From Callorhinchus milii (lineage: Eukaryota), in the NCBI RefSeq assembly GCF_018977255.1, contig NW_024704793.1, positions 248,001 to 312,000 on the forward strand: a stretch of 64,000 nt of DNA, in the 5' to 3' direction. The position numbers and the translations under genes were made by a program. The notes under the pieces were generated by a model that ran no database searches, was not told the origin of the DNA, and saw nothing but the letters and a program-made list of their open reading frames with translations. Positions 9,535 to 64,000 of the stretch are shown here, piece by piece. Position 1 is the first letter of the stretch; each line of letters opens with the position of its first letter.

Positions 9535-10097
9535 AACTGCATTTGCAATGTGACTCTTGAAGTCGGGAGAACGTCTCAAGGTAGTAAACGATCTGAGACG
9601 TTGCCCTGAGTGAGGGGCGCTATGTCAGTGCAAGTTGTTGCTGTTGTTCAACAAAGAGGGTTTTTACCTGGGCTGGGGGTTGGGATCAGGAGGGATGGAG
9701 GGCACGGAGGGCAGCAGAGTGATCGAAGGCACAGTAGAAGAGGAAGCTCTCTATCTTCTCCAGCTATCTCTATATCTCTCTCTTTCCCTGTCGCTTTCAC
9801 TTTGTGTCTCTCTCCTCCTTTTTCTCCCACTCTTTCCCTCTCTCTCGTTCCCTTCATCTCCACCTTTTTCCTTCCTCGCTCTTTCCTGCATCGATACTTC
9901 TATTCGCCTCTCACACTATTTCATCTTCTACTTCCCTCTGTGTCTCTCTCTCTTTCTCTTTCTTTCCCTATCTTTCCCTGCATCCGCCTCTTTTGTCCCC
10001 CTCACCCTTTCCCTATCTTTTGATTCTGGCTTCCTCTGACACTCCTTCTACCTCTGTGATGTGCTGTTTATCACAACCTACATCATATTTGCAGTCC

Positions 10098-10430
10098 TGC
10101 AGCTCAGCGGTTAGAGCTCTCGCCTCTGAATTGAGAGCTCTGGGTTCAATTCCTGGTAGGGCTAAATGTTGGGCAAGTTTCCTTATTTCACGCACACGCC
10201 ACTGCTTACCTCGCAGGTAGTAGGAGCACGATTTTTAGTTGTTGGGCGGATCTCTTTTCCTGGGTTTAATAATTCCTTTAAAAAATATATAATAAACTAT
10301 TCACTCAATCCGTGACCGTTTGTGGGACATTGCTGTGCGCAATTGGCTGCTGTGTTTCGAGCACAAAATTGGCAGTCAAGTCGCTTCACAGTACATTCTG
10401 TAAAGCGCTTTTAGACTCATTGAGCACTTT
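10098..10430 (+). mobile_element. tRNA-derived SINE with L2-type tail
   Basis: A-box-like cagctcagcggttagagc, B-box-like ggttcaattcc, family core gggcaagtttcctta and tgtgggacattgctgtgcgcaattggctgc. An orthologous copy is in the inverted duplicate at about 62170-62430. Confidence 0.85.
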
Positions 10431-10579
10431 ATACTGTTCTATAACTAATGCGAGAATTAGAATTATGACAATACGCTGTGTGTTGCGCTAATGATCCCGA
10501 GGAGCAGAATTCGCGCTTTGTCTGTGTATTAGGTGAGGAATGTTTCTCAGTCTCTCTCCCGTTTATCTCCTGTTTGCAG

Positions 10580-10939
10580 GATCTTCGGGAAGTGATACGA
10601 GCGTCAGTTATGTGGTGTCTAACGGCTCCAGCGCTGTCTTACTGCCCTGCTCTGCTGAGGCTGGGAAGAGATTCAAAGTCGCTGTATGGGAATGTATCAC
10701 AACCCCATGGAGAGAAGGGTACAGCTTGTGTGAGATAACTGAAAACCAACCTGTGTGTAATTCCCCACATCACACGGAGTTATCAGTGGCTGATTCCAAC
10801 GCATTCCAGTCAGGGAATGTCTCCCTGTTACTCACACCCACAATGAGCCAGGCTGGGGAGTATCACTGTAATGTTTATAAAGGAGAGAAGGGAAACAAAC
10901 GTGTGTATAAATCCATCATCCATCTGATAGTGTTTCACG
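10580..10939 (+). CDS. IgSF receptor gene exon 2: V-type Ig domain
   Basis: Acceptor tgtttgcag|G, donor CACG|GTGAGT, 360 nt phase 1-1. LPC...W...GNVSLLL...AGEYHC with an extra Cx8C pair. Confidence 0.93.
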
Positions 10940-10979
10940 GTGAGTTAGTGCAAAGACCCGAAAGATCCCTTGACATGTG

Positions 10980-11031
<52 letters not shown>

Positions 11032-11473
11032 TCACTCAGTCTTTCTCTCTCACTCATTCTCTCTCACATTTACTCTTTCGCGGTCTCGATATCAGTCTCC
11101 CTGTCTTGCTTCTTTTTTTCTTTCTTTCTTTCTTTCTTTCTTTCTTACTTTCTTTCTTTCTTTCTTTCTGTCTTTCTTTCTGTCTTTCCTTCTTTCTTTC
11201 ATTTATTTAATCATTGCCTCTTCATTTATTCATTTGTCTCTAGCACTCTCTCTCTGTGTTTTATTGTTTTTCTGTCTTGCAGTCTGCCTATCTTTCTTTC
11301 AGTCTCTACTTCTCCTTTTCTTCCTCCATGTCAGTCTTTTTTTTCTCTGTCTAACTTTCTCTCTCTTTCAGTCTTTTTCTCTCACATATTGTCTCTGACA
11401 TTTTCTCTTTCTCTGCTCTATATCAGTCTCTCTATCTTGCTTTTATCTTTCTTTCTTTCTTTCTTTCCCTATT

Positions 11474-11516
<43 letters not shown>

Positions 11517-11696
11517 CTCTCTATGTCCCTCATAGAGAAAGTGATAAGACGTCCGTCAATGCAGTGAGTTTGGCAGACCAGTGTCAGATACAGTTAATCT
11601 TCAGACTCTGAATGTTCCTGCGGTAAGTCATGTTGGAATAAGTTTTAGTTAATGGTTTTGACTGTGTCCCCTTGTCTGTCTCCTATCTCTCCGCAG

Positions 11697-12005
11697 TGTC
11701 TGTGTCTGCTGATAACTCTCTGACCCCGGGTGGCCGGCTGGCTCTGACCTGTAACATCTCTCACCCTGGTTATTTTAACACCACACCCACAATACATACA
11801 AACGGCTCAATCACTGCAGGGAGAATTGAGGTGCTGTGGACACACAATGGAAATGTGATTATCAGTGACACTCGTCACTGCGTGGATCTCAGAAGCTTAA
11901 ACATCAGCAAAGTTCAACAAACAGATTCCGGATCATATCGCTATAATATCAAGATAAAAGATTTCACCCCGTCCTACCAGAAAATTTACGTGACCGTTCT
12001 ATCAA
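11697..12005 (+). CDS. IgSF receptor gene exon 3: C2/I-type Ig domain
   Basis: Acceptor ctatctctccgcag|TG, donor TCAA|GTAAGT, 309 nt phase 1-1. LTC...W.HNG...LNI.KVQQTDSGSY; the F-strand Cys position is Tyr. Confidence 0.9.
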
Positions 12006-12149
12006 GTAAGTGGGAGCACACGCCATCCCTTTGTCTTTGTCCCTCTCTCTTATTCCATTCACTATCTATCAGTTTTTTCCTTCTGCCCTGATGGATCTCC
12101 ATCTGTCTCTCGATCTTTCTCTTTCTGTGTCTGTTTCTCTCTCTGCTCC

Positions 12150-17679: not shown

Positions 17680-20600
17680 CCACTATGGTCCTGTTGGGTT
17701 CGATGCCCCAATCTGCGGGATAATGCCATCCACCTGACCGCTCGCTCCCGGTCCCCGCGTGCGCACTATGGCTGCCGCTTTGACCCGAGCCCCTCACCCC
17801 CTCCCTCCCCCCCCTCCTCTCTCCCCCCAAACCCTCCCCCCTCTCCATCTCTCCCGCTCTCTCCTCCTCTCTCTCCGTCCCTCTCGTCTTCTATCCCCAC
17901 TTGACCCTCCCACAACCTCCCTCTGTTCCAGTCTGGGAATCCTCCGCCGGGCTCACCGCGGCACTCGGCGTTGGCTGTCCAGCAGCAGCCACACCGACTG
18001 CCCCATTCCCCACCACTCTCGCCAGCCACCCCGGACACAGACCCGGGGAGTCAACCTCTCCTCCCTCATCCCCATCTCCCCCACCCCTGCCTCACAACCT
18101 GGACCCCCCTCCCCTCCCACACACCCTTCTGTCAACCGCTCCCTCCACATCGGACTGCAAAATGTCCGCTCCCTCTGCAACAAGGCCCTGGTCATCAACG
18201 ATCTCATCCTTGATGAGAACGTTGATATCATGGCCTTGACAGAAACGTGGCTCACCCCAGGCGACACCTTCCCCCTCACGGAGGCCACGCCACCCGGCTA
18301 CACCTCCCACCACATCCCCCGCCCCAACCGCCGTGGCGGTGGTGTTGCCCTTATCTCAAGGACACCACTTGCCCTATCCCCCTACTCCTCTGGCTCTTTC
18401 CCCTCCTTCGAGCACCTCACCCTCTCCCACCCCTCATTCCTCTCCCTTAAAATCCTCCTCCTCTACCGGCCCCCTAAAACCTCTCCCACCTTCATCTCTG
18501 ACATTTCAACACTCCTCACATCTCTTTGCCTCTCCTCTGATCGCCTCATCATCCTGGGCGACTTTAACCTACACTTCACCCCCTCCTGCTCCATCTCCAC
18601 AGACTTCTCTTCCCTGCTCTCCTCACTCAACCTTTCCCTACACATAAACTCCCCCACTCACAGTCACGGCCACCCACTCGATTTGGTGATCACCCGGGGC
18701 CTCAGTGTCTCGGATGTCACTATTACCGACAAGGCCATCTCCGACCACTACTTCATCTCCTTCACCACCTCCACCCCCCTCCCCACCTCCACCAGACCCA
18801 CCACCATCTTCTACCGCCCTTGGAAGAAGTTACCCCCACAATCCCTAACCGATGCCTTGGAGTCCTCTGAACTCCTCTCCCTCTGGCCTTCAACCCTCAC
18901 CGACCCCTCTTCTCCTCTCTCCCTCCTCCACAATATCCTCTCCTCCACACTCGATACTCTTGCCCCCATCACTTCCCGCACTGTCTCCTACTCCCGCTCC
19001 TCCCCCTGGTACACCACCCACCTCCGCTCACTGAAATGCCAGGTGCGGGCTGCTGAGCGCACCTTTGTCAAATCCGGCTTAACGGTCCACCGACAAATCT
19101 GGCTGGACCTCCTCAAAATTTACCGCTCCACTCTAGCCTCGGCCAAGTCGTCCTTCTACTCCAGGATAATCCTGGAGGCGAAGAACAACCCCAGGCTACT
19201 GTTTTCCACCACATCCCGACTCCTCCGTCCCCCCCGCCACCCCGCGCAGGTCATCTCCTCCAACCTTCACTGCGAGGAGATGCTGGATTTCCTTGAATCC
19301 AAGATCAAGGGAATCCGCTCCGCGGTCACTTCCCCTCCAACTTCCACCCACCACCCACCCCTTCCCTCCCACACTCCGACTCCTACCCATCCTCCCCTAC
19401 ACACCTTCGTACCCGTTTCCCCACCCTCTGTCACTGAACTCATCCTATCCCTAAAACCAACCACCTGCTCCCTTGACCCCATCCCCACTCCACTCCTTAT
19501 CTCCCAGCTCCATTTTCTTGCCCCACACATCACTGACATCATAAACCTGTCCCTCTCCTCTGGCTCTGTCCCCATTCCATTAAAAACTGCCATCATCACG
19601 CCCACCCTGAAAAAACCCTCCCTTGATGCGTCGCAGCTATCAAGCTACCGGCCCATCTCCAACCTCCCCTTTCTCTCCAAGGTCTTGGAAAGAGTTGTCG
19701 CCTCCCAACTGCGCTCTTTCCTCTCCACCCATTCTCTTTTTGAACCCCTTCAGTCAGGTTTCCGTGCTGCCATAGCACAGAAACTGCCCTGGTCAAGGTC
19801 ACCAATGATATCCTGACCATCTGTGACCAGGGCTCCCTCTGTCTCCTCGTCCTCCTCGACCTATCGGCAGCATTCGATACGGTCGACCACGCTATCCTAC
19901 TCCACCGCTTGTCCTCCCACCTCAACCTTCAAGGCACTGTCCTTGAATGGTTTAGCTCTTACCTTTCCCACCGTCTTCACTTCGTCTCAACGAATGGCTT
20001 CTCCTCCACCCCCCGTACTGTCTCATGTGGTGTCCCTCAGGGCTCTGTCCTCGGTCCCCTCCTCTTCACCCTCTATATGCTCCCCCTCGGTGACATCATC
20101 CGCAAACATGGGGTTAACTTCCACATGTATGCGGATGACACCCAACTCTACCTTTCCTCCTCTACTCTCAACTCCACGACCACCGATGTCCTGACAGCCT
20201 GCCTGTCCGACATCGAGTCCTGGACGAGAGACAACTTTCTTCAGCTCAACGTGCGAAAAACCGAGGCCCTCCTGATTGGCTCACGTCAGCGCCTCCGCAC
20301 CTCAGGCGCTGACACCATCAGCATCCAAGGCTGCACTCTCCACCTCTCAAAGCCAGTCAGGAACCTCGGCGTTTTGTTCGACCCTGAGCTGTCCTTTCTC
20401 CCTCACATCCGCACCACAACTGGCACCGCCTTCCATCACCTCCGGAATATCGCCAGATTACGGCACTACCTCACCCCTCACGCCGCTGAAACCCTGGTTC
20501 ACGCCTTTGTCACCTCAAGGCTGGACTATGGGAACTCTCTCCTCGCCGGCCTTCCCGCCACCTCCCTCCACAAGCTGCAGGTCATTCAGAACTCTGCAGC

Positions 20601-21176
20601 TCGTGTACTGTCCCGCACCAGGCTTCGGGACCACATCACTCCTACCCTCGCTCGCCTCCACTGGCTCCCCATCCCCCAGAGGATTGATTTCAAGATCCTC
20701 ATCCTCACCTACAAGGCCATTCACGGCCTTGCTCCCTCCTACCTCTCCAACCTACTATCCCCCTACCTACCTGCCCGTACCCTCCGTTCCTCTGGCTCCG
20801 GTCTGCTCCACGTCCCCCGCCCCAACCGCCCTACTATCGGTGGTCGGGCCTTCAGCCTCTCAGCCCCGAGGCTCTGGAACTCCATCCCCCAGTGCCTTCG
20901 CCTTGCTTCCTCCCTTTCCTCCTTCAAGGCCGGTCTCAAAACCTTTCTCTTTGACCGTGCCTTCAGCTCCCCTCTCGACTCTCTTCCTCCTCCTCGCTCC
21001 CTCCCTTCCCTCCCCTCACCCTGACCATTTCCCCCCTCCTCTCTCCCTCCCTTCCCTCCCCTCACCCTGACCATTTCCCCCCTGCTCGGGTCATGACCCA
21101 ACTGTGCAGCGCCTTGGGACGTCCTCCTGACGTGAAAGGCGCTCTATAAATGGAATCTTGTTGTTGTTGTTGTTGT
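17680..21176 (+). mobile_element. Near-intact L2 LINE
   Basis: APE domain (LQNVRSL, LTETWL, GDFN, SDH), RT ([23 protein letters not shown]), duplicated segment in the 3' UTR (about 20995-21080), hairpin agcgcctt...aaggcgct 21108-21143, (ttg)n tail. Confidence 0.97.
17768..21024 (+). CDS. L2 ORF2 (endonuclease/reverse transcriptase) with one frameshift near 19771
   Basis: ORFs 17759-19816 and 19909-21024 join if one base is restored in gctgcc[c]atagcacagaa ([15 protein letters not shown]). Confidence 0.9.
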
Positions 21177-30762: not shown

Positions 30763-31070
30763 AATAATAATAATAATCCTTGCATTTGATATAGCGCTTT
30801 TCACGTCGGGAGGGCGTCCCAAAGCGCTTCACAGAACACACTGTAAAGTGAATTGACTGTATATTTGTTGACGAACGCGGCAGCCGATAGCGCACAGCGA
30901 TGTCCCACAAGCAGTCGGAGATAGAAAATGACCAATTTATTATTGATTTGGGGATTATTATTGGACTCTGTGTGGAGTAAGGAAACTTGCCCGAGGTTTC
31001 GCTCTGACCTGCCTAGGATTGAACTCAGGTCTCTCGCTTGCAAAGCGAGTGCTCTAACCACTGAGCTACA
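30763..31070 (-). mobile_element. tRNA-derived SINE with L2-type tail
   Basis: Full head (tgtagctcagtggttagagc on -), core and tail gcgctttgggacgccctcccgacgtgaaaagcgct + (att)n. Confidence 0.92.
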
Positions 31071-31179
31071 GGACTACACAAAGAGAGTAGTTCAGAAGTC
31101 TAGTCGGGAGGAGACTGACGCAAAGTCGAGTGGGCTACAAGAAGGATTGAGGACCTGCAGTCCGATTAACCAACCTACC

Positions 31180-44388: not shown

Positions 44389-44697
44389 GTAGCTCAGTGG
44401 TGAGAGCACTCTCTTTGCAAGCGAGAACTGAGTTCAATCCAGTAGAGGGCGAAACCTTGGGCAAGTTTCCTTACTCCACACAGAGCCTAATAATAATCCC
44501 TCCAAAACCCAAAATAATAATAAATTGATCATTTTCAATCTACGACTGTGTGTGGGACATTGCTGTGCGCAATTGGCTGTCGCATTCGCCCACAAATATA
44601 CAGTCAATTCACTTTACAGTGTGTTCTGTGAAGCGCTTTGGGGCGTCCTCCCGACGTGAAAAGCGCTATATCAAATTGAAGGATTATTATTATTATA
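44389..44697 (+). mobile_element. tRNA-derived SINE with L2-type tail, complete
   Basis: gtagctcagtggtgagagc head, gagttcaatcc B-box, core, tail hairpin, (att)n. Confidence 0.92.
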
Positions 44698-57229: not shown

Positions 57230-57621
57230 TCAGTGACACGGATTCACGGTGTCCATCAGGACAAGTGCAAGGTTTACAAAACTCGGTTTACCGCTGGATT
57301 TATTTACGGTTCTGGTCAGGGTCTTCAGTGGGAACGTTTCGTGGCCGACCACACATGAGTAGGAGGGCCTTCTGTTCCACTCATCGACTGAGAGGGTTAA
57401 CATGCTGTACATGGAGTAGTTGAGATCTTCACTGTCTGCCATCACCTCGGTGTTTCTGTACTTGTTGGCATCAATCAACTGGTCATTCACAGTCCACTGC
57501 ACAAAGATCTCTTTGGGAGCGAAGTCCTTCACCAGGCAGGTCAAGGTGACAAACTGCTGAGCAGCCATTTCTTCTGCCGAGGGGAGGAGCAGATACACTG
57601 AAGGTTGTTTTGTGTACATAA
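57230..57621 (-). CDS. IGHM: IgM heavy chain Cmu4 + secretory tailpiece
   Basis: Acceptor ttcttcctgcag|TT; PSVYLLLP..EE...TLTCLVKDFAPKEIFVQW...YSCVVGHE..PLK...RTVNKSSGKPSFVNLALVLMDTVNPCH*; internal membrane donor AGCG|GTAAAC after 57292. Confidence 0.95.
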
Positions 57622-58111
57622 CTGCAGGAAGAATGCAATCAGATCAATACAATGATGGTGTCAATCATAGAATATTTTGAAGCATCAGATCTTGCAGAAC
57701 AAGCTGAGAATAATGTTTGTGTCTCTGTTAAATCTGTGCTCAGTGGTTTGTAATTGTTGGTGTGACTATGAACACTGGTGTGGGTTGAAATCCCCGACAG
57801 GACTTTATTATATGCCCCCAGTGACCAGCGGTTCAGATATGGTAACTCTGCTCCCTGAGAACATGTGTAAACATCCTCCAGATGATGGTTAGATTCTTGT
57901 TGATATAATTCATGTGAGTGAATGTACTTAACAAATTTTATCTATAAATTGTTGTCCGACATTTGTGAGAGGTTATAAATCTATCGAAAGACAAACAGAA
58001 AAAGAAGCAAACAGAGAGCTGATCATTGTATTCCCAGTTGTTTCTGTTGACTAAAATCTGAAATTACAATAAACAAATAAATCATTTATTTCCTGAAATA
58101 TGGCTACTCAC

Positions 58112-58423
58112 CTTTCCTCTTAAATGTCTTTTCTCCGATGGGAGTTGGAATATCTTCATGATTGGCAAGGCAGAAGAATTCTTTCCCACTCTTCCAGTCT
58201 TGTGTAGAAACGTTTAATTTACTGATCACTTCCTGAGGCTCAGTGGCAGACGGTTTCCCATATCCAGACTGTAAATGTGTCTTTCCTTGTGTCCAAGTCA
58301 CGTTGACGTCAAGTGGTGCATTGGCCACGACACATGTCAGCGTTACAGTGGACTCCATTAAAACCTGTTGCTGCGAGGGTGGTAGGAAAGAGACCTTCAC
58401 ACCCCCAGTGGGTTGCTCACATT
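58112..58423 (-). CDS. IGHM: IgM heavy chain Cmu3
   Basis: Acceptor tttccttttctag|AA, donor AAG|GTGAGT, 312 nt phase 1-1; LPP..QQVLMESTVTLTCVV...W...SKLNVST.DW.SG..F.C.ANHEDIPTP, resembling shark Cmu3. Confidence 0.92.
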
Positions 58424-59629
58424 CTAGAAAAGGAAAACATACATGAAACTGGATTAACAACCAATATCCAGGATTTCATATTCGGTCAGTTAAACAATAC
58501 TGTCCATGAATATTCTCACATTGTGGGTGAGCTGAACACAGATTGCTGATTCCGAATATGCTCATCATTTGGTGTTGGAATAATTTACTGGAATACTGAA
58601 CAAGACTTCCTGAAGGACTGCGTGATATTGCACCTGTTGAGTTTCAATTCCATCTGACTGAATACCACTCAGGAATAAACACGTGTATTGGATGACTTGT
58701 AACTGTGCGTTTAACTGTATACCTTCTCGGATTAACCCAAATTCACTCTTTGTGTCCAGGAAACAAAGTGGAAGTAATTGTTGAGGAAGTGTGTGGTATA
58801 ACTCTGCGGATAAAAGGCTGTAGATTGCGGCCCGATTTCCTCATGTTGCTCAGTTAAATAAACTTGGGGTCAAAGCTCACATGTGTATTGTTTTCATTGA
58901 ATACCAAAAAGGGGCACTACAAAAATGAATGTAGCATTGTCAGGCGAAGCAGGTTCTCTGTTTGTATGTGTGTGTGTTCATGTGTGTGTATGTATGTATG
59001 TATGCAGTTTTTAGAAAAGCCGCTGAAACTAAACTGTTGCATCAATTTCCTAATCGTCTGTTTCATTTGCTAAAATATTTTTGTTTCAAGGTTACTAAGA
59101 CATTTGCGTAATCTTAAATTTTGATGCAATCGTCAGAAGATTTCAAACATATGTCTTTCTGGCTCTGATATGTATTAAAACAAGTTACTCTGCCGATGTG
59201 TGTTGTTAAAATAGTACATTAAATATTGATAAGAATAGGATCACTTGCATTGGAAATAGCGTCTTATCAAGTCTTTGAGACATTTCAATGCGCTTCACAC
59301 AATACAATGTGAAGTGAAATCAGTGTATATTGTCTGTGCGAAAAATATTTGATTGACTGTTGAAGAATTTTGATCCCTCTTAATTTTGTAATCTACAAAA
59401 CTAGAGAACGATTAAAATGGTTAGGTTCAGTGTTTACATGAGGAATGAAGGACTGCAATCAGTGTTGTGCCCAGGACACGGAAATACCCAACATATCTAT
59501 GGGTATTTTTGTCGCAATCAGCTGTGAAATGGTTAAATAAAGGCAGAAGCCGCTGTCCGGCGTTTGATGTTAGTGACGGTGCATTGCCTAACGGGCAAAG
59601 CAATATTACATTCACATTTGAAACTATAA

Positions 59630-60985: not shown

Positions 60986-60989
60986 ACAA

Positions 60990-61264
60990 GAGAAAAGGAC
61001 AAAGAAAATCATTAGCTAAAATTTATTCCTATATGACTTACCGAAGGAACTGTCAAAGTCTTAAATTTAACTGTGTCTGACACTGGTCTGCCCAACTCAC
61101 TGCATGTATGTGTCTTTTAGAGAGCGAGAAAATGAAAGAGAGAAAAAATAGGACAGAGTTTTAGAAAGAGAGAGAGACTGTGAGAGGTAAATTGAGAGAG
61201 AGAGTGAGAGAGAGAAAGAGAGTGAGATAGAGAGGGAGAGAGACAGCAAAAGAGAGAGAGAGAG

Positions 61265-61319
<55 letters not shown>

Positions 61320-61535
61320 GATAGCACGAGATAGACAGAGAAAAAAAAAGAGGGACATAAAAGGATAAACGGAGAGGTAGAGACTGAAAGAAAGATAGAC
61401 AAGCTGCAAGAGATGGAAACAGTGAAACAGAGAGAATGCTCGTGACAAATGAATAAATGAAGGAAGGAACAATTAAGAAAATGAAAAAAGATAGGAAGAA
61501 AGAATGAAAGAAAGAAAGAAAGAAAGAAAGAACGA

Positions 61536-61571
<36 letters not shown>

Positions 61572-62840
61572 AAAAAAAAGCAAGATGAAGAGACTGATAT
61601 AGAGAAAAAGAAAATGTGAGAGAGAATGACTGAGAGAAAAAGACACAGAGAGAGAGAGAGAAATACACATGTCGAGAGATCAGTCAGGTTTGTGCAGTAA
61701 CTCACCGTGAAACAATATCAGATGGACGATGGTTTTATACAAAATTTTGTGTTCCTTCTCTCGTTTATAAACAATACAGTGATATTCCCCAGCCTGGCTT
61801 ATTGTGGGTGTGAGTAACAGGGAGAGATTCCCTGACTGGAAAGCGTCCGAATCAGCCACTGATATCTCCTTGTGATGCAAGGAGTTACACACAGAGCTCT
61901 CTTCAGTTATTACACACAATCTGTGCAATTCTCTCCTTCGGGTTGTGAACCAATCCCATACAGCGAGTGTGAATCCTGTCGCAGCCCCAGGAGAGCAGGG
62001 CAGTAAGACAGCGCTGGAGCCGTTAGACACCACATAAATCTCGCTCTGATCACTTCCCTCAGATCCTGCACAGGAGATAAACGTGAGACAGACTGAGAAA
62101 CACTCCTCACCTAATACACAGCACACGGAGCAAAGCCTGCACCTTGTGATCATCAGCACATCACACAGCGTATTATAATAATAATCAGCGCATTAGTTAC
62201 AGCTCCTTATCACGTGCTCAAGTTGTCTAAAAGTGCTTCACAGAATATACAGAATATAATAACCCCCGGAAAAGAGACAAGCAATCATCTGATAAGTGGA
62301 ATCCGACTAACTGGGAGATAAACAGTGTTTGCGTGTGGAGTAAGGAAACTTGCTCAACATTTCAACCTTCAGAAATTGAACCAGCAACTCTCACTTCTGA
62401 GGGGAGAGCTCTAAATCCTGAGTTTCAGGACTGCATATATTGTATAGGTTGTGATGAACAGCACATCACAGAGAGAGGAGTGTGAGAGGAAGGCGAGAAA
62501 CCAAGGAAAGTGAAAGAGTGAATGAGGTAAAAGAGTGAGATGCCGGGAACGAGAGGGAGAGAAACAGGGAAATAGAGAGAGGTAGAGGGCGAAAGAATGT
62601 GAGAGTTGAAGACAAGTATCAATACAGCAAAGGGTGAATACTAAAAGGTGGAGATGAAGTTAATGAGAGAGAGCGAAAGAAAGTGGGAGAAGAAAAAGGA
62701 GAGAGACGAAGGGTAAGAGGGACAGTGAAAAAGAGAGATATAGAGATAGAGGGAGAAAGAACGAGGGCGTCCTCTTCCACTGTAACTTCGATCAACTTCC
62801 TGCCATCCCTACCCTCCAACCCTCCTGATCCCAACTCTCA
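60990..62840 (-). repeat. Inverted paralogous copy of 9675-11665 (intron 1 part, SINE, V exon, intron 2)
   Basis: Shared unique text at both ends (gttgggatcaggaggg; cagaccagtgtcaga.acagttaa...cggtaagtcat), the same SINE and the same microsatellites. Confidence 0.93.
61706..62065 (-). CDS. V-type Ig exon, paralogue of 10580-10939, upstream of Cmu3
   Basis: Acceptor ttatctcctgtgcag|G, donor CACG|GTGAGT, 360 nt phase 1-1, no stops; 82/120 aa identical to the + copy by manual count. Confidence 0.93.
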
Positions 62841-63074
62841 GTGCTTTCGCTGAAATTGTCGTTTAGGAGTAACAGCAAGCTTGTGTTGCAAAGCTGAGCT
62901 GATTGTGCAAAACTGTTTTTGCTAAAAACAATGCTAGTTGCTGACTGCAGCAAAACTAAACTGCACAGGGGTCGAAGACCATATTTCGGAATATGTTAAG
63001 ATCGTTGGTTTTGTGACTTTTACCGAAAATAGAATGGCTGAAAGAATTAGTGATAAGGAAGAGTTGTGGCGAAC

Positions 63075-63287
63075 ATAATAATAATAATATTAATAATCCT
63101 TGCATTTGATATAGCGCTTTTCACGTTGGGAGGATGTCCCAAAGCGCTTCACAGAACACACTGTAAAGTGAACTTAATGTATATTTGTGGGCGAACGCGG
63201 CAGCCAATTGAGTACATCAATGTCCCACAAACAGTCGTAGATTCAAAATGACCAATTTATCATTGTTTTTGGCTTTGAAGGGATTAT
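63075..63287 (-). mobile_element. tRNA-derived SINE, tail half only (interrupted at 63288)
   Basis: Matches the 30763-30960 part of the full copy and stops at ggattat. Confidence 0.85.
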
Positions 63288-63674
63288 TGCGGGACCCAGT
63301 GAATGCCCAATTAAGATGGGTAACTTGCAAAATAGATTAGGAGCTTAGTGTGCTCGGGTGCAAATGATAAAATAAGGGCAAGAACGGGAAAAAGACAGAA
63401 GTGTCCGTAGTACGAGTAGATGGAATACTGAAAGCAGGAAGAAACAAGGTTGCATGTAGTAAAGAAACAGTTCTGAGTTTCTATGCTTGACATAGGGCTG
63501 AGTTTGTATGCTGAAAAGACACAGTGCTGAGCGTGAACCTTCTACGGTAATATTGTTCCGAAACAAGATCGTTTGATTGTACCTGCCTTTGTTCTACCAA
63601 TTGGGTAACTGGAGAAAAGCGATGAATAAGCCAATCTGCTTGCAAACGGATGTTGGTTGACTTTGTTTCTAACA
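63288..63674 (+). mobile_element. Putative 5' LTR (TG...CA) of an LTR retroelement/ERV
   Basis: Starts with TG where the SINE homology breaks, ends ...ctaaCA 4 nt before a tRNA-complementary tract. No second LTR or coding region in the window. Confidence 0.5.
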
Positions 63675-63678
63675 TATT

Positions 63679-63719
63679 TGGCGTAGTCGGCAGGATTCGA
63701 ACCCGCGCGGGGAAACCCC
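63679..63719 (-). other. 3' half of mature tRNA-Ser including CCA (reads as an extended PBS on +); not a tRNA gene
   Basis: Minus strand GGGGTTTCCCCGCGCGGGTTCGAATCCTGCCGACTACG-CCA differs at one position from the vertebrate tRNA-Ser 3' end as recalled. Confidence 0.88.
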
Positions 63720-63850
63720 TCCTTACCGTGACCTGGTGCGTACGGGCTTCCCCCGAGACACCATGAAGACGCCGAGCTTGGCGCGGACGCCTGATCGGCA
63801 CAGCCCGCTGCAGCTCAGAACTCCTGGCCTTAAGCGATCCACCAGTCTTA
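63715..63850 (-). ncRNA. 7SL (SRP) RNA-derived segment, roughly nt 50-181 of vertebrate 7SL
   Basis: Minus strand GGATCGCTTAAGGCCAGGAGTTCTGAGCTG...TGCCGATCAGGCGTCCGCGCCAAGCTCGGC...ATGGTG...CACCAGGT...TAAGGAGGGGT aligns by eye with 7SL as recalled. A fragment, not a full gene. Confidence 0.82.
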
Positions 63851-64000
63851 ACTTACAACGCACCACTTACATGCCGGTCGATAGCAGCCACGAATGGGTA
63901 CGCCCTCCCTCTGCTGGACAAATATCCCGGAGTTATCGCTACACATAAACATGATTGCGGTCATATCACTGAAGTGGAGCAAATTAAAGGTCCCACTCAC

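Follow-up and report, generated by a model that had tools for sequence, protein, structure and literature searches.

The window, that is the whole 64,000-nt stretch of Callorhinchus milii DNA analysed here, closes on the 5' LTR of an endogenous retrovirus (ERV), which is followed by an over-long primer-binding site (PBS) and a captured piece of 7SL RNA (Table 1). It stops 115 nt past the 7SL part, before any gag, PPT or 3' LTR, and a second copy of the tRNA-7SL unit is absent from its 64 kb. The coordinates at which a preliminary description had placed this unit are correct on re-reading the sequence, and its assignment of the unit to a retroelement leader is supported and can be tied to an LTR like that of CmiERV lineage I. 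A 123-aa stop-free frame (63481-63852) that spans LTR, PBS and 7SL part is dismissed as chance, as are the IS009 and CRISPR-DR29 matches of Rfam in the region.

Table 1. Features at the right-hand end of the window, in order of position
Feature	Positions	Strand	Basis or remark
Possible 5' start of the LTR (uncertain)	62994..63066	+	TG-starting 8-mer, 2 mismatches to the reverse complement of the LTR end
SINE 3' tail with (ATT)n end	63084..63288	-	89% / 88% identical to copies at 44492-44696 / 30763-30952
3' part of ERV 5' LTR (U3 end, R, U5), related to CmiERV lineage I	63291..63674	+	By-eye comparison with PMC4422223 Dataset 1
4-nt spacer, LTR end to PBS	63675..63678	+	Sequence; the CmiERV lineage I spacer is 3 nt
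Canonical 18-nt PBS (tRNA positions 76-59)	63679..63696	+	18/18 identical to the CmiERV lineage I PBS
23-nt extension complementary to the same tRNA, from position 58 via T-arm and variable arm to 45	63697..63719	+	Direct reading
5-nt microhomology common to tRNA variable arm and 7SL	63715..63719	+	Variable-arm stem; human 7SL primer
7SL RNA fragment, model positions 45-175, antisense on the element strand	63720..63850	-	RF00017, E 1.5e-8
Antisense of 7SL helix 6, hairpin on both strands	63734..63763	+	z -2.78 on +, -2.18 on -; picked after the fact
Local hairpin of the element strand inside the 7SL part	63771..63799	+	-15.8 kcal/mol, z -2.99, 2/200 shuffles; picked after the fact
Possible degenerate 5' end (Alu domain) of 7SL with internal deletion; weak	63851..63885	-	Model positions 1-44, low alignment confidence
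Sequence downstream of the 7SL part, leader or flank	63886..64000	+	Window end

Two immunoglobulin C1-set exons (57230-58475, minus strand; Pfam PF07654, E 4.2e-22 and 3.9e-11), the lower of which ends like a secreted heavy-chain tail, lie about 5 kb from the LTR element, which is possibly situated within or beside a heavy-chain gene. Two inverted paralogous blocks (9673-11677 and 60989-62841) are about 75% identical, and each contains an open frame that resembles a V-type Ig exon (10537 on the plus strand, 61680 on the minus strand) and has no Pfam match; an Ig-like exon follows at 11642-12091. The plus strand also carries two intronless rhodopsin-family GPCR frames (PF00001; 26721-27860 and 40635-41564) and a nearly intact L2-type LINE ORF2 with endonuclease and reverse transcriptase (RT) at 17738-21024, in two overlapping frames with one frameshift near 19750-19816. 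The only Rfam matches at gathering level are tRNA-like and probably SINE heads (10093-10164, plus strand; 31004-31075, minus strand); a third, decayed tRNA-like sequence, probably of the same origin, lies near 62333-62435.

Homology to the host paralog stops at 62841, and no host sequence resumes within 62842-63066. The LTR start proposed in Table 1 is one of four candidate 8-mers with two mismatches within 62800-63300, and the SINE tail is probably a later insertion into the LTR. On the other side of the tRNA-7SL unit, the paralogous host block is not resumed at 63851-64000 (score 22, shuffle mean 21.9), and 63886-64000 has no match elsewhere in the window. Among the 24 sequencing runs listed, 20 carry some part of 62842-64000, and five contain 0.74-0.88 of its sampled words; these five come from two studies of one organism, one of which may be the source of the assembly. 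That five runs contain at least half of 62842-64000 argues against an assembly error over the greater part of this interval, although it does not bear on the join. None of the runs listed as containing the interval is an RNA data set, which carries no information on expression. Shares of 0.06-0.08 in the runs of three other organisms may be the SINE.

The closest comparison for the LTR is offered by CmiERV lineage I, an elephant-shark ERV grouped with Snakehead retrovirus (Han 2015, PMC4422223, Scaffold 2 element). Compared by eye with that element, the LTR is identical at 27 of 36 ungapped positions at 63545-63580, at 12 of 13 at 63635-63647, where both sequences have a poly(A)-like hexamer immediately ahead (63625-63630 in the window), and at all nine positions of the LTR end (63666-63674); only the block at 63545-63580 is significant by itself (about 0.002 over all placements). 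The three blocks stand in the same order in the published element and lead to an identical 18-nt PBS, so that the 3' ends of the two LTRs are homologous and, beyond a short spacer, the PBS agrees in its first 18 bases. The two elements differ in that the PBS of CmiERV lineage I is 18 nt long and its sequence diverges from base 19 (tRNA position 58), the 23-nt extension being absent; its leader, in the part of the source available, has neither a tRNA extension nor recognisable 7SL. The LTRs, moreover, align in short blocks only (about 75%), and coding sequence does not enter the comparison. Behind the PBS, the leader has by eye no likeness to the published lineage-I leader as far as the source gives it, and a 12-nt 7SL motif has no match on either strand in two CmiERV supplement files as available, where line breaks can hide matches. 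The ordered LTR blocks and the identical PBS, together with the departure of the published element at base 19, identify the flank as an ERV 5' LTR and the extension and 7SL as a derived state. Judged from sequence, the window's ERV is a sub-family related to but distinct from CmiERV lineage I; it is a relative and at most a candidate member of the lineage.

Read directly, 63679-63719 of the plus strand is complementary to the 3'-terminal 41 nt, CCA included, of a tRNA with a long variable arm, which bears out the mature tRNA 3' half recognised in the preliminary description. The complement of CCA is followed by the discriminator, a 7-nt acceptor strand, the T-arm, one linker base and the variable arm. 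The T-stem consists of four Watson-Crick pairs and one G-U wobble, 11 of 11 letters of the T-loop region agree with the Rfam tRNA consensus, and the variable arm is 12 nt long, with a 4-bp stem and a 3-nt loop, its last base (63719) being tRNA position 45. As the tRNA part carries CCA, it was copied from a mature RNA. A tRNA gene would show the whole cloverleaf and would not encode CCA, whereas this locus has no more than the 3' 41 nt, of which CCA is a part. Neither Rfam (RF00005) nor ARAGORN reports the half-tRNA at 63679-63719, and the Infernal comparison with RF00005 suggested earlier thus returned no match to it. We take the tRNA to be Ser, as had been claimed, from its long variable arm, the vertebrate tRNA-Ser sequence and the discriminator rule, and not from a database match. 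A long variable arm is a mark of Ser or Leu tRNAs (PMC3333845).

The sequence beyond the tRNA part is 7SL in antisense. Aligned to RF00017 as a truncated fragment, 63720-63850 scores 36.5 bits over its model positions (Table 1), and 63720-63885 scores 39.9 bits (E 2.1e-9) over model positions 1-175 of 299; the antisense 7SL proposed beside the tRNA half, for which this Rfam family had been named as the check, is therefore significant as a truncated fragment. A 701-nt scan of the region gives a chance-level RF00017 match only (E 5.5), and both fragment scores lie below the 70-bit gathering score, as expected for a fragment. The last 35 nt (63851-63885) contribute only about 3 bits, with low alignment confidence; an end of the 7SL at 63880, as originally put forward, is plausible, although support past 63850 is weak. 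Full-length 7SL would include helix 8 and the 3' strand of helix 5; model positions 176-299 are missing except for the shared 5 nt, and the 7SL part is a fragment, not a gene. The helix-6 hairpin noticed in the preliminary description is present at 63743-63755. Both local hairpins of Table 1 are partly inherited from 7SL and their z-scores are post hoc; the 7SL part as a whole folds no better than shuffles on either strand (z -0.68 and -0.60). The human 7SL forward primer differs from the window at four positions, three of which (within 63777-63795) lie in a single 4-bp local stem whose pairs are all Watson-Crick on the element strand; as two of these three changes also occur in the Rfam consensus, they do not establish selection.

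The GGGGT overlap that had been pointed out at the join is real on both RNA sides. In the tRNA it provides one strand of the variable-arm stem, and a human 7SL reverse primer (PMC2175372) matches at 11 of 11 positions from 63715 to 63725 with a mismatch at 63714, which therefore makes the overlap exactly 5 nt long. The chance of at least 5 shared nt at a random join is 0.005-0.011. LINE-made chimeras and SINEs are recognised by a tail and a target-site duplication; the tRNA-7SL unit has no tail, and no word of at least 5 nt is shared between 63640-63678 and 63845-63930 as a target-site duplication around it. The junction pattern has no match in viral contigs, which are uninformative for vertebrate ERVs.

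The two halves of the unit have diverged to very different degrees. The tRNA part has one irregular site in 41, and the 7SL part, compared by eye, 17 differences in 57 positions from three human 7SL oligos (PMC2175372), to which it is identical at 15/19, 10/19 and 15/19 positions, the last with one inserted base. This asymmetry has a Fisher P of 0.0004, or of 0.04 if half of the differences are those of host versus human, the 7SL divergence being measured against human oligos and not against elephant-shark 7SL. Only one of the 13 differences scored in two of the human oligos removes a CpG. The interval 63721-64000 contains 20 CpG, a number reached by one of 222 background tiles; its observed/expected ratio of 0.95 is as high in 24 of the 222.

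The fusion is likely to have originated by read-through of the primer tRNA during plus-strand synthesis, followed by a jump to co-packaged 7SL. This sequence of primer read-through and microhomology-guided switch, already envisaged in the preliminary description, is supported, each step having laboratory precedent (PMC8599865, PMC2175372, PMC4997597). An origin by plus-strand switch is favoured by the low chance of the microhomology and by the lack of a target-site duplication of at least 5 nt. During plus-strand synthesis the RT first copies the LTR and afterwards proceeds into the primer tRNA, beginning at the CCA end (PMC3187697); such copying followed by a switch accounts for both RNAs lying antisense on one strand with CCA first, whereas tRNA priming on 7SL would give the opposite polarity.

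From the demonstrated parts, namely the LTR end, the 18-nt PBS, the 23-nt extension, the 5-nt overlap, the antisense 7SL and the common polarity of both RNAs, we infer the following steps. Plus-strand synthesis would have proceeded past position 58, either unmethylated or read through, and past position 54 and the variable-arm loop, to stall after position 45, adjoining position 44. The last five copied bases would then have paired with 7SL around model position 176-180, and from there synthesis would have continued toward the 7SL 5' end. A second jump, needed for integration, would have brought the product back onto the minus strand of the virus, where the initial 18 bases of the PBS still paired, and the completed DNA would have integrated in the germ line. 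Position 44 is presumably 2'-O-methylated in vertebrate tRNA-Ser too, and with Um at this position a stall after position 45 is a reasonable inference. In yeast tRNA-Ser, position 44 is Um, that is 2'-O-methylated (PMC10275265).

What is known of retroviral primers and particles speaks on both sides of such a read-through. The plus-strand stop depends on m1A58, and an RT that meets a tRNA without m1A58 does not stop at position 58; in tRNA-Lys3, 2'-O-methylated U54 acts as another stop, and the complementarity of lentiviral genomes to the primer is retained as far as U54 (PMC8599865). Of the host RNAs in retroviral particles, tRNAs apart, 7SL is the most abundant; it is packaged without SRP54 or SRP19 and has entered an experimental recombinant as a patch, through repair of the microhomology type (PMC4997597). 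In virions, 7SL is also reverse transcribed (PMC2175372). Against a read-through origin, longer read-through products normally fail at plus-strand transfer (PMC8599865). All cytoplasmic Ser tRNAs of zebrafish, furthermore, carry m3C in the variable loop (PMC11417395); with m1A58 and this m3C, the RT must have passed several modified bases, which counts against read-through.

The same anatomy is predicted by a repair after integration, in which the provirus was broken at or near the PBS, the end annealed to tRNA-Ser, and a LINE (L2/CR1) RT or a repair polymerase extended the tRNA copy, switched to 7SL and rejoined, as a one-off event without a retroviral particle. An almost intact L2 ORF2 inside the window would provide for it, but the tRNA-7SL unit itself bears neither a LINE tail nor a target-site duplication. 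L2/CR1 elements often leave no target-site duplication. The far greater divergence of the 7SL part relative to the adjoining tRNA part would stay unexplained by repair, and while primate LINE-1 chimeras with tRNA halves and 7SL do exist, their tRNA pieces are mostly 5' halves (nt 1-37; PMC13174262); taken together, we regard this repair as unlikely. Joining at the RNA level, of a 7SL fragment to a 3' tRNA fragment with subsequent copying of the chimera into the leader or the genome, has a precedent in U6/L1 chimeras, for which RNA ligation is an established route (cited in PMC13174262 and PMC7472051), and 7SL fragments are present in virions (PMC3781035). Ligation, however, predicts zero shared bases, against which stands the low chance of a 5-nt overlap (0.005-0.011), and the tRNA is broken at position 45 and not in the anticodon loop, where halves usually get cut; such a ligation is very improbable. 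The minus strand, finally, reads 7SL and then tRNA-CCA, like a Pol III chimera, and could be taken for a SINE or a free chimeric retrocopy with a 7SL head and a tRNA tail that lies beside the LTR by chance. Yet the CCA end is 4 nt behind the LTR end and the published relative has the same 18-nt PBS at the same place; an A-rich or repeat tail is missing, and elephant-shark SINEs, as far as described, begin with a tRNA head and end in an L2 tail (PMC5499810). Of the three origins, a SINE or free retrocopy is the least credible.

A further proposal, compatible with an origin by read-through and switch, is that the element RNA has been selected to pair with the tRNA half and with host 7SL, for instance as a means of recruiting 7SL into particles. 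Packaged 7SL, devoid of SRP54 and SRP19 (PMC4997597), might be open to pairing, and in one 19-nt stretch three of four changes retain pairing via wobble. Over the 13 differences from two human 7SL oligos, on the other hand, five retain pairing by G-U wobble and eight break it; among the transitions, five of eight retain it, which is chance level (P 0.36). A base is inserted in the 7SL part near the join, and as of 2016 7SL had no known role in retroviral replication in the available account (PMC4997597). The pairing design with host 7SL imagined in the preliminary description does not find support in these counts, which compare with human 7SL and not with that of the species itself, and selection for pairing is quite unlikely.

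This raises the question as to whether the recombinant formed by read-through and switch was a single dead copy or continued to replicate. From a one-off copy that is dead one expects even decay and a loss of CpG, and the uneven divergence and the retained CpG thus favour a replicating lineage. The pan-metazoan Rfam consensus, however, has several of the window's differences from human 7SL, including three of the four CpG gains; host 7SL may therefore be closer to the window than human 7SL is, which weakens the argument from asymmetry. On balance, we hold it slightly likelier that the recombinant kept replicating than that it died as a single copy. If it did replicate, the long PBS would have been re-copied from the tRNA, or kept complementary to it, in every cycle, while the 7SL piece would have drifted, retaining only local hairpins. 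More tentatively, and at somewhat less than even weight, one can picture a Snakehead-retrovirus-like ERV sub-lineage of chimaeras that replicates with a 41-nt PBS comprising the tRNA-Ser T-arm and variable arm, tolerates read-through past m1A58 to a stop at position 44, and keeps antisense 7SL in its leader as hairpins, possibly for packaging. The 7SL segment may have been co-opted as a packaging hairpin; this is a fair lead, not a result.

In terms of known systems, the locus works like retroviral patch recombination with packaged 7SL, combined with primer read-through. The retrovirus-7SL recombinant of Hajjar and Linial 1993 (cited in PMC4997597) likewise has 7SL built into retroviral DNA by template switching at a fortuitous microhomology, but it is a laboratory product, and the account in the available part of PMC4997597 includes neither a primer read-through joined to 7SL nor fixation in the germ line. 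The lentiviral second stop at m5Um54 (PMC8599865) shares with the window a complementarity to the primer tRNA that runs past position 58 and ends beside a 2'-O-methylated uridine (presumed here); it covers about 22 nt, in contrast to the 41 nt of the window, which take in the whole T-arm and variable arm and are followed by a second host RNA. LINE-1 chimeras of small RNAs (U6, tRNA halves, 7SL; PMC13174262) also join host small RNAs in one reverse-transcription event, whereas they are attached to a LINE 3' end with target-site duplications and the unit described here has no LINE part and is placed at the PBS of an ERV. The literature searched, the scope of which left aside most subscription journals, Repbase and Dfam, yielded no account of an ERV whose 41-nt PBS continues into 7SL; the available parts of PMC5512871, PMC12789967, PMC3203606, PMC3945221, PMC7472051 and PMC3187697 provide background and contain nothing on this element.

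Even as a single copy, the locus is a natural germ-line record of primer read-through and of recombination with packaged 7SL, both of which are known mainly from the laboratory. It belongs to one of the earliest-branching jawed-vertebrate retrovirus lineages and would suggest that the packaging of 7SL extends beyond the retroviruses of birds and mammals. If the join is common to many copies, a retroelement can tolerate a PBS that exceeds twice the usual size; the join would then point towards an additional stop of plus-strand synthesis at tRNA position 44 and constitute a natural test case for the role of 7SL in retroviral particles.
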